Shown: positions 6,040 through 18,745 of the stretch, piece by piece
Position numbering within the stretch: the stretch's first letter is position 1
Layout of the letters: the number at the start of each line of letters is the position of its first letter
Virus genome (UHGV): UHGV-0346409
DNA: 44,226 nucleotides
Direction: 5' to 3' (one strand)
Source of the DNA: a virus
Program-made: the position numbers and the translations under genes
The notes under the pieces: generated by a model
What the model was told of the DNA's origin: nothing
The model's database searches: none
Seen by the model: the letters and a program-made list of their open reading frames with translations, nothing else

Positions 6040-6453
6040 CTATTTTGTCTGGTTTTTGGCTTCAAGTAGTTCTTTTAGCAGTAGATCGAAGTGCTCTCTT
6101 TTTTCTTTTAGCTCATTGATTAATTTATTTTTTTCGCTCTCAGGCAGTCCTCTGAATAGTTGCAGTAGAGCCTGTTCTTGCGGGGTTAGTTCTTGATTGT
6201 AATTACCCGGGTGTAGCGTGGATTCATCCAAATATTCCCCTTCATTCATGAAGAAAAAATGAACAGGGTATCCGGTCACTTTTGCTAGCTTGTCTAATTT
6301 ATCTTTTCTTGGAGTTACCCCATTACACCATGCCTGAACTGATTGAGCCGTAACCCCAATATGGCGAGCTAACTCAGATTGAGACCAGCCTAAGTCTTTT
6401 AGAATCCGTTGTAGTCGGCTAGCAAAAGCCATGTTTTTCGTTTTTGTGTTCAT
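6040..6453 (-). CDS. cI-like HTH_XRE prophage repressor, short form without S24/LexA-type peptidase domain
   Basis: HTH segment SQSELARHIGVTAQSVQAWCNG. Divergent from the cro-like gene. The ORF track begins at a TTG (6468); I prefer the ATG at 6453. The C-terminus is a short helical tail. Confidence 0.8.
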   Translation of the reverse strand: MNTKTKNMAFASRLQRILKDLGWSQSELARHIGVTAQSVQAWCNGVTPRKDKLDKLAKVTGYPVHFFFMNEGEYLDESTLHPGNYNQELTPQEQALLQLFRGLPESEKNKLINELKEKREHFDLLLKELLEAKNQTK

Positions 6454-12435: not shown

Positions 12436-12515
12436 TATTTGCGCTTAAAAAGGTATTTAGTCACAACCAGCACGAGGCCGAATACTCTGTCAAAGTACCG
12501 CCCATGTAAAACTGT
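12436..12515. repeat. Diverged copy (5 substitutions, 1 indel) of the 3' end of the 2-TM gene at 16037..16117; frameshifted gene remnant
   Basis: Aligned by eye. The minus strand would read ...QFYMGGTLTE, then a 1-bp deletion, then VFGLVLVVTKYLFKRK-stop. Confidence 0.8.
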
Positions 12516-12583
12516 TACGTATGTACTTGATGACTAAGCTGGCACCAGGTTAACACCAGGCGCCAGCTTGAAGGAAACTTCAG

Positions 12584-13507
12584 TTATTGGTTTCTGAGGA
12601 AAGCGATTCTTGAAAGGGTCATTTGCGTCTGGCAGTCGACCATTTTCTTGACTTCAGCATCTGTTCCCTGCATTGAAACTTTACCGCACATAGCATCCTT
12701 AGTTTTGATCCACTGACGCTGAGAAGGCAGCAACTCTTTTTTCTTCGCCGGCGTTAACCTGCCCCAGACTGTATTCAAATCAGAGTCAGCATTCGCAAAT
12801 GCCATTCGGGACTGATCAAGGCTTTCAGCTTTTTGCGGCTGAAGTTGTGCCTGCCTCTCTATTTGCTTCTCCGCCTCATACCTGGCCTGTTCCTGTGCCC
12901 TGAGTTGCACCTGTTGTTCCGCTTCAATTTGACTCTGTTGGGCATCCTTAGCCTGCTGGATTTTCTGCTGCTCAACGATCGGGTTGATAATGGAAAGCGA
13001 TGTCAGTAAAGCGGCGCCCACTGATATCGGATTATCAGAAGAGGTTTTTACAAAAACGTTTTTCTGATCGTCGGTCGCCTGCACGGTGTAGGTGATACGT
13101 TTTGAAAAGGCGTTTGCGTTGTTCTCCAAAAACAGATTTTCCATTTGCTTATCGAGATTACGATTAAAATTCTTTCGGTAAGCATCAGAAAGCTGGATGT
13201 ACTCGTTCGCAGGTAGAGTCATCGTCACGGTCCCTTCACAAGTTTTCATTGTGCTGCCCGTGTCACTTGATGTTGTGGAGATTTCAGAGACGGCTAGTTT
13301 GATCTTGTCCAGTGTGCTTCGTTTGGTCTGATTAGTGACATCAGGGTATTTATCGACCTGTTCAGAGAGTCCTTCATAAGCAGATTTTTTTAATAAATCC
13401 ATGAGAGCTGATTGGGTCATTTCCGAAGAACAACCGATCTCATCTTTTTTGTTATCACAGCCTGTAAGGGCAATGGCGAGTAAGAGTACTGAGTATTTTA
13501 ATCTCAT
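12584..13507 (-). CDS. Lipoprotein with C-terminal DUF1311 (LprI-like) domain
   Basis: Lipobox LLAIALTGC, a Q/E-rich coiled middle, and the C-terminal segment LNTVWGRL...QRQWIKTKDAMCG typical of DUF1311. Confidence 0.72.
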   Translation of the reverse strand: MRLKYSVLLLAIALTGCDNKKDEIGCSSEMTQSALMDLLKKSAYEGLSEQVDKYPDVTNQTKRSTLDKIKLAVSEISTTSSDTGSTMKTCEGTVTMTLPANEYIQLSDAYRKNFNRNLDKQMENLFLENNANAFSKRITYTVQATDDQKNVFVKTSSDNPISVGAALLTSLSIINPIVEQQKIQQAKDAQQSQIEAEQQVQLRAQEQARYEAEKQIERQAQLQPQKAESLDQSRMAFANADSDLNTVWGRLTPAKKKELLPSQRQWIKTKDAMCGKVSMQGTDAEVKKMVDCQTQMTLSRIAFLRNQ

Positions 13508-14535: not shown

Positions 14536-15201
14536 ATGAAAGCCGACAACTTAAGAATTATAGAGAATGGCAAATATGTTTTCGATATGTTCTTGGATAC
14601 TGGTGAATTTTACTATACAAGTCATGCCTTTGACACGAGAGAAGATGCAAAAAGCTGGATGGAAGAATGGCAGATTTGGGCAAATAATGTATCGAGTGGG
14701 AAAGTAAGTAGTATTTATTATATTTTACAAGTGCCTGATACTTGGGCCGGTTCTTCAGATAAAAATAACCCTTACTCGGGACTTTATGTGAAAATAGGGC
14801 GTTCCAATAATGTGCTAAAAAGGTTGTCTAACCTGCAGACAGGTGCATTTGGTCAATTAATATTACACGCTTTGGAACCAGGTGGTTCAGAAAAAGAAAA
14901 CTATCTTCATGAAAAATTTAGCAACGAAAGACGTCAAGGTGAATGGTTTGTTTGTACTAAGGAACTTACCAAGCATATATTTACAACATGGTTTAAAAAC
15001 AAAATGCTCCCACCAGAACATCAAATAAAAATAATGCAGCTCGCAGAAAGAATAGGTATTTATTCGCATGTTCATACACTAATGGGGGGGAAGCCAGACT
15101 TAGTAAACCCATCTATTAGTGAACCTTGGGAATGCGAAAAATATGTTTTGGTTGATATGATTTATAGCTCTTTAGCAAAGCAAGTTAATCATAAAAAATA
15201 A
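14536..15201 (+). CDS. T5orf172 (MUG113, GIY-YIG-like) domain protein
   Basis: LYVKIGRSNNVLKRLSNLQTG...ENYLHEKFSNERRQGEWF matches the T5orf172 signature KIG.T.N...R...LQTG...E..LH..F...R..GEWF. Confidence 0.7.
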   Translation: MKADNLRIIENGKYVFDMFLDTGEFYYTSHAFDTREDAKSWMEEWQIWANNVSSGKVSSIYYILQVPDTWAGSSDKNNPYSGLYVKIGRSNNVLKRLSNLQTGAFGQLILHALEPGGSEKENYLHEKFSNERRQGEWFVCTKELTKHIFTTWFKNKMLPPEHQIKIMQLAERIGIYSHVHTLMGGKPDLVNPSISEPWECEKYVLVDMIYSSLAKQVNHKK

Positions 15202-15288: not shown

Positions 15289-15433
15289 TTGTCATACATG
15301 GGTTAAAGAGTTATATAATAATATCTGCTTCTGGAACACAGCAGACAAGCACCTGCAGATAAAGGTCTGCTGAGAGCGAGAAGCGGATCATACGTTGGAA
15401 GTTGTTTAGGCAAATACGTTATAAACGTATTTG
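15289..15433 (+). promoter_or_regulatory. Candidate promoter (TTGTCA-17-TATATA) and structured 5' leader of the 134-aa gene
   Basis: Mutually exclusive hairpins: TCTGCT/AGCAGA (15324..15345) versus CAGCAGAC/GTCTGCTG (15339..15372). Also a perfect 10-bp-arm palindrome CAAATACGTT-ATA-AACGTATTTG (15411..15433). Confidence 0.4.
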
Positions 15434-15521
15434 ATTAAATTTACTTGGATCATAGTCTTCAATAACGCTTTATTATATTGTTTTTCATGCAGCAAACAGG
15501 TTCACAGGTAGGTAATAAGCT

Positions 15522-15926
15522 ATGAGTGGATGGAAAGAGCCTTTTACATTAGCAGAACAGATACAATTAGCATTAAATTTAGGTTATGAGGCTGTACCAG
15601 ATGAAGAGGCATATACTGGGGCATACTTCATTAAAGGTGGTAAGAAGTGGATCTTTAACATCATCGGTCTCAAAAAGACATTGAATATATCTTCAGATGA
15701 TGAACTAAGAGGGCAGGATTATGATGTTGATATGTATTTCGAAATTCGCCAAAATTGGGCACAATACCAAGATATGATCTTTGGAAGCGAAGATATCACT
15801 CCTTCACCTAAAAATGAACTTACTTCAATTTACCATGACCTGCAGGTAACGGATGAACCCAGGGAAATGGTGTATCTTTCTGATGGGATGTGGCTGGATC
15901 CCAACGGACGAATTGTACAACGATAG
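15522..15926 (+). CDS. Hypothetical acidic protein
   Basis: 134-aa ORF. By my count about 23 D/E versus 12 K/R. No recognisable family. Confidence 0.55.
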   Translation: MSGWKEPFTLAEQIQLALNLGYEAVPDEEAYTGAYFIKGGKKWIFNIIGLKKTLNISSDDELRGQDYDVDMYFEIRQNWAQYQDMIFGSEDITPSPKNELTSIYHDLQVTDEPREMVYLSDGMWLDPNGRIVQR

Positions 15927-16035
15927 CACTCGAACACACTCAGTAATCGTCTATAAGGCCAGCACTTGTTACTTGGTCATTTGGGGTTGCTGGTCTTCTC
16001 CATTAAATCGACTAAAGTCTGTTCCATAGAGAGAG

Positions 16036-16641
16036 TTACTTGCGTTTAAAAAGGTATTTTGTCACGACCAGCACGAGGCCGAATACCTCTGTCAAAGTAC
16101 CGCCCATGTACAACTGTAGTGTTAAATCCTCAAATTCCAGCTTACCTGCGCCGTCGGCAATAAATACACCATTCATTATCAGAAGTTGGCAAGCAAGGAT
16201 AATCAGGAACCATTTCCCGTATCGTTTTTTTAGAGCGATTTCTGCTTCAAAATCTTTGTTGTTGAGTTGTTTGCGCTCATGCTCGGTATCAAGTGAATTC
16301 ACCTGTTTCACAGATGTGAACTCGGTCAAGATTTTACTCTCAGTACGGGTGACTTGTTGAGAGGGTGTAACAGTTGGAATTCTTTTGCTAGACGCAGCTA
16401 CAGCCATTTTGCGAGCTTCGGCAGCTCTTTTTCTGGCTATTCCGCGAATACGGACAGCCGTTTTTTTGGGGGCGTGCGAAACCTTTGGCTGAGGTGAAGT
16501 TTCGTCAGGAGACTGAACCGGGGTTTCATCGTCCCCCGGCTCAACCTCTTCTGCTAACTGACGGTGTAGGTTGAGGGAATCCTTCAGTCGGCGTGCAACT
16601 TCCTGTTTGAAACGGCTGTTAAAATCGTCATCCGATGGCAT
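16036..16641 (-). CDS. Membrane protein: charged, low-complexity N-terminal region plus two C-terminal TM helices
   Basis: 201 aa. The hydrophobic segments are WFLIILACQLLIMNGVFIA and TLTEVFGLVLVVTKYLF. It sits 9 nt downstream of the ImmA/IrrE gene. Confidence 0.7.
   Translation of the reverse strand: MPSDDDFNSRFKQEVARRLKDSLNLHRQLAEEVEPGDDETPVQSPDETSPQPKVSHAPKKTAVRIRGIARKRAAEARKMAVAASSKRIPTVTPSQQVTRTESKILTEFTSVKQVNSLDTEHERKQLNNKDFEAEIALKKRYGKWFLIILACQLLIMNGVFIADGAGKLEFEDLTLQLYMGGTLTEVFGLVLVVTKYLFKRK
16037..16117. repeat. Intact partner of the repeat at 12436..12515 (3' end of the 2-TM gene)
   Basis: Aligned by eye; roughly 93 percent identity by my count. Confidence 0.8.
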
Positions 16642-16650
16642 TCTAAAGCG

Positions 16651-17139
16651 TTACCCCAACCTCAAGTTCTTTAAACGATAAGTCATCGCATCGTCAGATA
16701 CGCCAAAATAATGCGCCATTATATAACTTGGTTGGCCGTCAGCGTGCAGTTTTCTGACCTCATCAACCGGCATCAGAAGTTCTGCTGCGAACTTGTTCGC
16801 AAAAATTTCATCAGGATGCGTTCCGGCGCTTGCGGTTTCGCCACGTAAATCAACGTACTCATATTCATCACTATGCGATGCTTGCCGGGCGATGTAATGC
16901 CCCAACTCATGCCCACATGAAAAACGTTGACGAACTTTGTTGTCATCACTGTTTAGAAAGATCGCTGGATCTTGATCTTTTTGTTTAATCAGTGCGCCAG
17001 AAACTTTCCCAGGAAGATCGGTAATAAAAACATCTAATCCCATGTCGTGAGCAATTTTCGCTGGATCAACAGGGAAACCACGCCCGCACCAGAACGTGTC
17101 CAGCACTCGCCGGGCGTGCTCTCTTGGGTTGGTAGCCAT
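16651..17139 (-). CDS. ImmA/IrrE-family (DUF955, M78-like) zinc metallopeptidase, stand-alone without HTH
   Basis: HELGH motif in SCGHELGHYIARQ with a downstream ...FANKFAAELLMP. GGAGGAG RBS. Confidence 0.8.
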   Translation of the reverse strand: MATNPREHARRVLDTFWCGRGFPVDPAKIAHDMGLDVFITDLPGKVSGALIKQKDQDPAIFLNSDDNKVRQRFSCGHELGHYIARQASHSDEYEYVDLRGETASAGTHPDEIFANKFAAELLMPVDEVRKLHADGQPSYIMAHYFGVSDDAMTYRLKNLRLG

Positions 17140-17194
17140 AGCTCCTCCAGTTACTGCATTACGATTGTTGGTCGAAATATAGACAACATGTTCC

Positions 17195-17237
17195 GTACCA
17201 CTTTCCTGTGAAAGTGCAAATTCTGCACTTCTGGTAC
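17195..17237. promoter_or_regulatory. Nested palindromes upstream of the ImmA/IrrE operon (candidate operator)
   Basis: GTACCA...TGGTAC encloses CACTTTC-CTGT-GAAAGTG and AGTGCA-AATTC-TGCACT. Confidence 0.4.
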
Positions 17238-17572
17238 GATATTAACTGTTAGTAGTAAAGTCTTCCAGATAAATCACTTTAAAATCTTGTGAATTGCTTG
17301 CTTTTTACGCTGCATTGTGGATGGCTCAATGTTTCCAGTAAAAACATACATGATAATCATGACATTAGTGGTTTTTTAAGCGTCCATATGTTTCTTAAAA
17401 AAATGGATGCCACAAGAGGCCAGATGAGAACGGAAAGGGAAGGCTATTACATGTGTGATTTATTACATCTGTAAAAAAATACAGATCTAACTTGATCTTT
17501 TCATTGAAGTTTTTCTTGGTCCTGGATAGGATCTGGAGGTTGCGAAGTTTTTAGAGTCGCATCAAAGGGAAA

Positions 17573-17598
17573 GCCCTGACAGCGCCAACTGTCAGGGC
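17573..17598. repeat. Strong 10-bp hairpin GCCCTGACAG-CGCCAA-CTGTCAGGGC
   Basis: Read directly. The minus-strand reading is followed by TTTCCCTTTG (a weak U tract). Confidence 0.5.
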
Positions 17599-17616
17599 CA
17601 TACAAAAACATCGGTT

Positions 17617-17678
17617 AATGCTTTCGTTGAGATCTCGGTTTGGGAGATTACCTCAACCGGGATCCCGTGTAAAGCATT
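17617..17678 (+). promoter_or_regulatory. Compact structured element about 30 nt upstream of the 92-aa ORF
   Basis: The closing helix AATGCTTT/AAAGCATT encloses the hairpin GTTGAG-ATCTC-GGTTTGG-GAGAT-tac-CTCAAC and the palindrome CGGGATCCCG. Confidence 0.35.
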
Positions 17679-17706
17679 CATTACCGAAAATGATATAGGT
17701 CAATGA

Positions 17707-17985
17707 ATGAAACACATCTGTAAAAAGTCACATCGTCACGACAGTATGTTTGATGTTCTTTCTGCAAATCAGGGTAACGTTGGGCGGCACAAGTGTTGTG
17801 GATGTGCCTATGATAAAGGTATGTGGCATGCATTAATCGGCGTTCCGCGTGCGGTTGATGACTCTGTTTTAGGTGATTTACCCGAAAGCCAGGCTGGGCA
17901 TGTCCGTCATAAAGATGCTTTTGAAGCATATAATATGGGCTATGACCATGGGATGCATAAAAAAGCCTACGGTATGGCCTCATAA
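17707..17985 (+). CDS. Hypothetical Cys/His-rich small protein
   Basis: 92-aa ORF (HKCCGCAYDKG...) followed by a strong terminator. Weak RBS and an uncertain start (alternative MFDVL). The antisense 130-aa ORF looks spurious. Confidence 0.45.
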   Translation: MKHICKKSHRHDSMFDVLSANQGNVGRHKCCGCAYDKGMWHALIGVPRAVDDSVLGDLPESQAGHVRHKDAFEAYNMGYDHGMHKKAYGMAS

Positions 17986-18005
17986 TCTGGTGCAAATGAA
18001 TAACT

Positions 18006-18032
18006 AACCCGCTTCGGCGGGTTTTCTTTTTT
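18006..18032 (+). terminator. Intrinsic terminator
   Basis: AACCCGC-TTCG-GCGGGTT followed by TTCTTTTTT. Confidence 0.8.
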
Positions 18033-18103
18033 ATAGAACCCTGCGATGTGAAAACGAATAATAAATTTTGCAAATAATGCAGTTTTTATTATTCGAGGTA
18101 ATT

Positions 18104-18745
18104 ATGAAAACCTTCTATGAGGACTGGCCTGAAACTTTCGTTAGCCGATTAGATATGTTACGAGCTCTGGATGATCGCGGCTCGACCCGGAGGCTCTATC
18201 TTGAGCGGACCGGGGCAATATTTGACGCTCTGGCAGAAGAGATACGTACAGCCGTTGCCGGGCATCCTGAAATCGACGTGAGTGAACTTGATATCGGGCC
18301 GCTGTATCGCTATTACAAACGTGGAGAAAAGGGGAATCCGCTGGCTGACTTACTTATTGAGTTGGCTCCACCAACTTGTGAACGGGTTCGTATATCTCCT
18401 GAAGTGTACACAATCCCGTATCTGTTTTTTGCACTGTTGATAGCGCAAGGCGCTGACAACGATGCCCGCGATTTTTTCAATATGATGATGCGACCGTTGA
18501 TCATCGCCTACCGTTTCAAACAACTGGCGCGCTACCTTGGCACGAAGGGCGGAGGACGACCACAGCACAGATTAAAAAGCGAAGCCATTGAACTGGCTGA
18601 TCGTTTTTTTACTGAAAACCCGACAGCGCCATTATCGCGTGGTGTGCAATACATATCCGGTATTTTTGTGGCGAAATACTCTGACCCACCTGCAGCGTCG
18701 ACGATTAGAAAATGGTTAATTTCAATTTACAGGAGTGATAAATAA
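18104..18745 (+). CDS. Hypothetical protein (213 aa from MKTFYEDW)
   Basis: GAGG RBS 7 nt upstream of the ATG at 18104. No family recognised. Confidence 0.6.
   Translation: MKTFYEDWPETFVSRLDMLRALDDRGSTRRLYLERTGAIFDALAEEIRTAVAGHPEIDVSELDIGPLYRYYKRGEKGNPLADLLIELAPPTCERVRISPEVYTIPYLFFALLIAQGADNDARDFFNMMMRPLIIAYRFKQLARYLGTKGGGRPQHRLKSEAIELADRFFTENPTAPLSRGVQYISGIFVAKYSDPPAASTIRKWLISIYRSDK

Follow-up and report, generated by a model that had tools for sequence, protein, structure and literature searches.

The window analysed here is a 44,226-nt stretch of viral DNA (UHGV virus genome UHGV-0346409), which corresponds to an Escherichia coli prophage integrated beside a tRNA-Ser gene and mtfA. On its minus strand lies a two-gene operon, described as such in a first-pass annotation made from the sequence alone and seen equally in the list of open reading frames (ORFs), in the sequence and by Pfam. 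The upstream gene (16651..17139) encodes a 162-aa stand-alone zinc protease of the Peptidase_M78 (ImmA/IrrE) family with a HELGH motif and no helix-turn-helix (HTH) domain, and the downstream gene (16036..16641) encodes a 201-aa protein with two transmembrane (TM) helices. We designate them rmrA-like and rmrT-like, the former encoding a putative antitoxin and the latter a putative pore-forming or depolarising toxin, for reasons given below. A spacer of 9 nt (CGCTTTAGA, 16642..16650, minus strand) separates the TAA of the protease gene from the ATG of the toxin gene. The protease gene is preceded by a strong Shine-Dalgarno sequence (GGAGGA), and none of comparable strength could be read from the sequence before the toxin gene; given this, the two genes are likely to be translationally coupled. 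In relatives, the protease and toxin genes abut or overlap by 4 nt. The two ORFs of the window also share one reading frame and are parted by the TAA and the 9 nt only, so that stop-codon read-through would yield a fusion protein; this same-frame arrangement is not conserved, as the genes of other family members overlap out of frame.

Based on its sequence motif, its glutamate ligand, its Pfam score and its IrrE/CapP-like fold, the protease belongs to the Peptidase_M78 metallopeptidases. Residues 32-157 match PF06114 with an E-value of 7.7e-18 and 64.9 bits (cut-off 22), and Pfam detects no HTH in the protein. The motif SCGHELGHY contains H77, E78 and H81, and these three residues, together with E111, are invariant among 22 protease homologues. 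The catalytic residues are thus intact, and catalysis is under selection. In the AlphaFold2 (AF2) model, of confidence (pLDDT) 89.6, the chain stops right after the peptidase domain. By sequence and by fold, the closest solved structures are CapP (7t5t) and IrrE/PprI, with Foldseek E-values of 3.8e-7 for CapP and 1.2e-5 for IrrE. The top PADLOC match is likewise capP, but the alignment is limited to profile positions 3-151 of 242, which indicates that the protease lacks the GAF domain. In CapP and IrrE, it is this domain that forms the groove for single-stranded DNA (ssDNA), and in CapP it is C-terminal (PMC13228613). The RmrA profiles of PADLOC align to the protease through their peptidase part alone (e.g., positions 166-266 of 363). 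The PADLOC and Foldseek searches proposed by the first-pass annotation therefore gave a protease closest to capP/CapP, a partner without PADLOC match, and no system call.

Hydrophobic stretches of the 201-aa protein were found in Kyte-Doolittle windows at about residues 144-162 and 175-195. In an AF2 model built on 23 homologues, residues 3-31 form a helix (pLDDT about 70-87) and residues 33-114 a segment of low confidence; a long helix then spans 119-163, uniting a juxtamembrane part with TM1, and TM2 follows at 171-198. The two hydrophobic helices originally read at the C-terminal end are thus found by hydropathy and model alike. The accompanying claim of a disordered N-terminus of roughly 140 residues stands in part only: residues of about 33-114 are disordered and hypervariable in the family alignment, whereas residues 1-31 form a conserved helix and a conserved stretch at about 116-143 belongs, as its juxtamembrane part, to the long helix. 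Clusters of Lys and Arg flank the TM pair, before TM1 and after TM2, which by the positive-inside rule suggests that both ends of the protein are cytoplasmic.

No match to this protein was found in Pfam (E≤1), PADLOC (E≤1) or NCBIfam, and ten other members of its family gave no Pfam match at or near the gathering score (E≤0.1). SLATT, other named 2-TM effectors and holins were accordingly rejected as its identity, as no Pfam family matched. It does match phrog_5346, a PHROG without assigned function. With a profile of the toxin family, 698 members were retrieved at E≤1e-3 from 1.84 billion representative proteins, all of them small. Residues conserved across the family are D/E134, L137, K138, Y141 and A/G142 in the juxtamembrane part, L149, Q152, L153, N157, F160 and G164 in the TM1 region, and G181, T182, L183, E185, F187, G188, V190, L197 and F198 in the second hydrophobic part. 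They make up a signature that reads DxxLKxxYA, then LxxQLxxxNxxFxxxG, then GTLxExFGxV, with LF at the end. The toxin of the window is the longest of the conservation set (201 aa versus a median of 125 aa, some members having about 85 aa), and owes its extra length to its linker.

The association between the two genes is strictly conserved. A search with the 201-aa protein gave 13 loci that hold a full-length toxin gene; in each of them the protease gene is the immediate upstream neighbour of that gene, and the same order is seen in six further loci (L020-L025). Proteases 52-55% identical to that of the window, from Pectobacterium, Silvimonas, Salmonella and Pseudoalteromonas, are in all four cases followed by a 2-TM gene, 0-6 nt downstream, whose product of 111-145 aa carries the same C-terminal signature; two of these four loci belong to primase-AlpA (integrase) islands. 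An M78 gene again stands upstream of the toxin gene, abutting or overlapping it, on a Solirubrobacteraceae contig and on a metagenome contig of low G+C content. A scan of genome contigs, in a collection with one genome per species, yielded three loci only. No HTH gene adjoins the pair in the window or in related loci with annotated neighbours. The pairing therefore holds across phyla (Enterobacteria, Betaproteobacteria, an actinobacterial contig and a metagenome contig), and the pair is a portable cassette.

The closest characterised counterpart of this cassette is the RosmerTA system of Gordonia phage Kita, which we reached both via an actinobacterial member of the toxin family and via the protease. 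It consists of an ImmA-type protease antitoxin, RmrA_D25 (gp32, YP_009301393.1), and a C-terminally membrane-anchored toxin, RmrT_D5 (gp33, YP_009301394.1) (Ernits et al., 2023, PMC10440598). RmrT_D5 is toxic and causes rapid depolarisation and permeabilisation of E. coli membranes, and the pair defends E. coli against phages Bas54 and Bas59 (PMC10440598). The protease of the window is 43% identical to RmrA_D25 over 157 of its 162 aa (pairwise E 1e-41). For the toxins, RmrT_D5 scored 43.0 bits on a toxin-family profile of 146 sequences, versus a maximum of 16.0 among 1000 controls in which every TM and loop segment had been shuffled separately; with a profile restricted to enterobacteria it scored 16.1 bits versus a control maximum of 10.7. 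A motif, T..EV.G...IT..LF, is common to the window toxin family and the Kita toxin, and a tblastn search of phage genomes with the window toxin gave no match. Judging from these scores, the homology of the two toxins is real but remote, bridged by intermediate sequences.

The two pairs resemble each other beyond sequence. In both, the protease gene comes first (gp32 and gp33 overlap by 4 nt, versus a gap of 9 nt in the window), the protease is a stand-alone M78 protein of about 160-180 aa without HTH, the toxin combines a variable polar N-terminus with a C-terminal 2-TM domain, and the carrier is a temperate phage, the Kita pair lying near the integrase gene. They differ in host, Actinobacteria for Kita versus Enterobacteria here, and in the length of the toxin (119 aa versus 201 aa), the window toxin being longer because of a disordered insert of roughly 80 aa. 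PADLOC v2.0.0 handles the Kita proteins and the window pair alike, with RmrA_D25 matching best as capP and RmrT_D5 matching nothing; this observation bears on the loci of Gordonia phage Kita (L037) and of ThankyouJordi (L036). Since the Kita pair is missed equally, the missing call in the window reflects an annotation gap and not novelty: PADLOC would not report Kita-type Rosmer systems because their toxin matches no model. The first-pass annotation had assigned the pair to no named defence system. Since each of the two proteins has a homologue in the Kita pair, this has to be revised, as the cassette belongs to the RosmerTA family sensu Ernits et al. (2023); it is a relative of an already described system and not a new one.

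A second line of evidence comes from E. coli itself. Phan et al. (2013, PMC3789825) analysed a library of the sequence type 131 (ST131) strain EC958 by the transposon-directed sequencing of insertion sites (TraDIS), with one insertion per 9.9 bp. Among the genes essential specifically in EC958 is EC958_2158, whose entry reads "COG2856 predicted Zn peptidase, DUF955, Pfam 2-125", while the adjacent EC958_2157 and EC958_2159 carry reads and are listed as ordinary non-essential genes (PMC3789825). EC958_2153 is a ybcO/DUF1364 homologue (59% identical to b0549), and the protease gene of the EC958 cassette lies five genes further on; it therefore corresponds to EC958_2158, and the toxin gene then to EC958_2159. 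The Pfam range of 2-125 is compatible with the protease if the latter was annotated from Met32. In the supplements of a TraDIS compendium (mBio, 2024), the protease gene was absent under any name tried. An essential protease gene beside a disruptable toxin gene is the signature of an antitoxin-toxin pair.

We therefore propose, with a probability of roughly 0.72, that the pair is a Kita-type RosmerTA cassette, i.e., a protease-antitoxin and membrane-toxin module expressed in the lysogen as an accessory gene pair and acting as abortive-infection cargo of prophages and satellites. The 201-aa protein would form a helical hairpin in the inner membrane, its two ends facing the cytoplasm, and, when unrestrained, might oligomerise via the conserved polar TM residues Q152, N157, T182 and E185, the oligomer depolarising or permeabilising the membrane. 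Neutralisation would fall to the M78 zinc protease, a cytoplasmic protein translated together with the toxin, and would most probably occur by cleavage of the toxin's cytoplasmic N-terminal or juxtamembrane part. Phage infection would then remove or overwhelm this neutralisation, and the cell would be depolarised before the phage cycle ends, an abortive infection to the benefit of prophage and host. We infer the proteolytic nature of the neutralisation, its trigger and the phage defence by the E. coli cassette. Of the two models put forward in the first-pass annotation, the one in which the protease serves as antitoxin to the membrane toxin agrees with the Kita homology and the essentiality in EC958, and these same two observations make its label of a candidate abortive-infection module a reasonable one.

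Several points weigh against this interpretation. The assays of toxicity and defence concern the Kita pair, the E. coli cassette being known from its genes and from the published ST131 TraDIS data. Its toxin is a remote homologue of that of Kita, linked to it through intermediate sequences. The mapping onto EC958 locus tags was made through gene order and domain label, not through a sequence match, and an outward transposon promoter over-expressing the toxin gene could partly explain the TraDIS call; even then, the call would point to a toxic product. Finally, the Kita antitoxin neutralises its toxin only partly, AlphaFold gave no model of their complex, and the defence conferred is narrow, being directed against two phages of the BASEL collection (PMC10440598).

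The protease could also act in the opposite sense, as in the other model of the first-pass annotation: in a gasdermin-like arrangement, an infection signal such as ssDNA, the activator of CapP and IrrE, would switch on the protease, which would cut off an inhibitory N-terminus and release the pore. The characterised stand-alone relatives ImmA, IrrE and CapP are indeed signal-activated proteases that cleave a partner, CapP is the top match of the protease in PADLOC and in the Protein Data Bank, and a conserved helix lies in the long N-terminal, cytoplasmic extension of the toxin. Yet the EC958 protease gene is essential and its toxin gene is not, the reverse of what an activator would give. Moreover, the Kita protease is an antitoxin, the window protease has neither the GAF domain nor the ssDNA groove that CapP and IrrE possess, and in many family members hardly any N-terminal extension exists (median length of 125 aa, some of about 85 aa). 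The TraDIS result, the Kita data and these very short N-termini together disfavour activation, which we regard as unlikely. A role in prophage induction seems more improbable still. Here the protease would be an anti-repressor of the ImmA type that cleaves a short HTH repressor in trans, and the membrane protein a passenger or a lysis or exclusion factor. ImmA/ImmR systems operate in this way, and the 130-aa HTH repressor of the prophage, apparently devoid of an S24 domain, makes a separate induction factor plausible. However, the cassette moves separately from immunity regions (its sites include positions next to integrases, at a holin gene, on P4-like islands and at an integrase remnant near SPI-5), its constant partner is the 2-TM protein with no HTH gene adjoining in annotated loci, and cells would survive without an anti-repressor, whereas EC958_2158 is essential; on these three grounds we consider an induction switch very improbable.

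A further view is that the pair is purely an addiction or stabilisation module, or that the membrane protein serves in superinfection exclusion, without any role in abortive infection. The essentiality of the protease gene is of the kind expected of a toxin-antitoxin (TA) pair, selection would favour stabilisation at the ends of prophages and in degraded elements, in both of which the cassette occurs, and the defence by the Kita pair is narrow. This view is nonetheless improbable in our estimate, as the homologous Kita pair did shield E. coli from two phages, other RosmerTA systems defend, and the cassette occupies variable accessory slots of the kind typical of defence cargo. A bolder version of the protease-antitoxin and membrane-toxin module would see in the cassette a distinct cross-phylum system, with about 700 toxin representatives at 50% identity, in which the antitoxin enzymatically and continuously clips the cytoplasmic tail of the toxin and phages trigger the system by blocking or out-competing the protease. 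We offer this version tentatively, and rather doubt that it holds in full.

The Kita-type cassette can further be placed among known systems. It shares with canonical RosmerTA (Millman et al., 2022; RmrA/RmrT in PADLOC; the E. coli E101 module of Rousset et al., 2021) an M78 zinc-peptidase antitoxin, a toxin of an otherwise unknown family, an antitoxin gene that apparently cannot be deleted, carriage by prophages and, presumably, a role against phages. ClpXP dependence is reported for other Rosmer systems. Unlike the window protease, with its 162 aa and no HTH, canonical RmrA carries an N-terminal Xre HTH and measures about 360-400 aa; the toxin gene of the E101 module lies upstream of the antitoxin gene, the reverse of the order in the window, and no RmrT model matches the window toxin (PADLOC, E≤1). 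CapP/CapH, IrrE/DdrO and ImmA/ImmR have the same protease fold and catalytic motif, and ImmA is also a stand-alone protein, but these proteases cleave an adjacent HTH repressor, whereas the partner in the window is a membrane protein. Membership in CapP/CapH was rejected in the absence of an adjoining CapH-type HTH gene and of a GAF domain, and membership among ImmA/ImmR switches in view of the missing adjacent HTH repressor and of the TraDIS essentiality of the ST131 protease gene. Panacea-associated membrane toxins (e.g., PanT_D11 of B. choladocola) are similar by description, having a polar N-terminus, C-terminal TM helices, depolarising activity and a cytoplasmic antitoxin, but the antitoxin domain is Panacea/DUF4065 and not a protease.

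A conserved upstream region moves with the cassette (17140..17395, minus strand): it is near-identical to EC958 up to about 17395, and the sequences are unrelated beyond. Within these 255 nt, a promoter scan located a sigma-70-like site at 17379..17350 (TTAAAA-18-TATCAT). The putative 5' leader contains nested palindromes at 17195..17237 (GTACCA..TGGTAC; GTGCA-N5-TGCAC; CACTTTC-ACAG-GAAAGTG), which are kept in close relatives only; the Salmonella cassette has the outer arms alone, and other family members lack them. The palindromes reported in the first-pass annotation are thus present, but their reading as an operator belonging to the operon is not supported, since no DNA-binding protein is encoded in the cassette and the site is not conserved across the family. 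The RNA fold of the leader is no better than that of shuffled sequences (z -0.56), and the idea of a structured leader or operator was dropped. The upstream regions of nine family members have no common motif besides the Shine-Dalgarno sequence, an Rfam scan of 15300..18200 at E≤1 gave nothing, and no LexA box (CTG-N10-CAG) was seen upstream by eye, without a dedicated scan. Further upstream, 17396..17706 is the distal part of a 567-nt intergenic region; it is absent in EC958, which has a 77-aa ORF there, and contains on the minus strand a strong hairpin with a T-rich tail (17599..17572). A 24-nt imperfect inverted repeat lies at 17617..17678, and no Rfam family matches this distal part.

Within the prophage, the replication genes lie to one side of the pair and the DUF1367/DUF1364/Q region to the other, and the early-right genes are on the other strand. 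A 2.2-kb query around it is 100% identical to strain RM10042, and as a whole is common to only 18 of 442 E. coli genomes, the remainder retaining just the pair. Flanks shared by so few genomes confirm the accessory hot spot that had been postulated. The borders of the cassette fall near 17395 upstream, by comparison with EC958, and near 16015 at the other end, according to the genome matches. When the pair alone was used as query, it was found in 431 of 5426 complete E. coli genomes (about 8%), mostly ST131 at 98.9% identity, with both genes annotated as intact in every E. coli row listed. The sites it occupies vary: between mtfA and the integrase gene in other E. coli, just upstream of the holin gene in an Enterobacter prophage, next to integrases, and on P4-like islands. 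The Salmonella enterica copy (L024/L025) lies between yccA and an integrase remnant and adjoins pipA, pipB and sopB of SPI-5. In strain Z0117EC0036, an IS1 element sits inside the neighbouring 134-aa gene and leaves the pair untouched; lying outside the pair, it is uninformative on which of the two genes is dispensable.

The window also carries a relic of another toxin gene's 3' end, detected by tblastn at 12438..12568 on the minus strand between an LprI-family gene and an ORF6N gene. It comprises the last roughly 25-43 codons with a frameshifting 1-nt deletion, its core (12438..12516) showing about 92% DNA identity over about 79 nt and the similarity being weaker up to 12568. The recombination anchor that the first-pass annotation had placed at the 3' end of the pair is thus real, as a remnant of a toxin gene at 12438..12516. 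The same relic occurs in related prophages (L006, L008, L009, L016-L019) and suggests a scar of repeated gain and loss of cassettes in this prophage region. The genes around the pair include a GIY-YIG nuclease family protein (14536..15201, plus strand), the 134-aa hypothetical protein (15522..15926, plus strand) and an LprI-family lipoprotein (12584..13507, minus strand), and ST131 prophages have other genes in their place. In EC958, the toxin gene is flanked by EC958_2160, a 232-aa "putative lysogenic protein" (L035 7840..8538) that is also TraDIS-essential and is absent from the window; it could be another immunity or antitoxin-like gene of the same hot spot. A 130-aa helix-turn-helix protein at about 6040..6432 of the window (minus strand; L001 8541..8933) is the annotated repressor of the prophage; its size, small for a typical CI with an S24 self-cleavage domain, and its annotation suggest that it has no such domain. 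A gene of the "toxin YdaT family" lies nearby.

Collectively, these observations link a cassette so far labelled only as "ImmA/IrrE peptidase + hypothetical protein" to a characterised TA and defence pair. They delimit, with a clear signature, a toxin family that has no model in Pfam, NCBIfam or PADLOC, and most of the matched ST131 genomes carry a cassette that PADLOC v2 would not report. The antitoxin reading also accounts for the essentiality of a prophage "Zn peptidase" gene in ST131 EC958, and the pair provides a tractable model native to E. coli for how Rosmer-type protease antitoxins neutralise their toxins. If the antitoxin does clip the toxin at its conserved N-terminal or juxtamembrane element, it would be a proteolytic antitoxin, a mode of action as yet undemonstrated for any TA system, and such clipping would explain why canonical Rosmer antitoxins have kept an intact peptidase.

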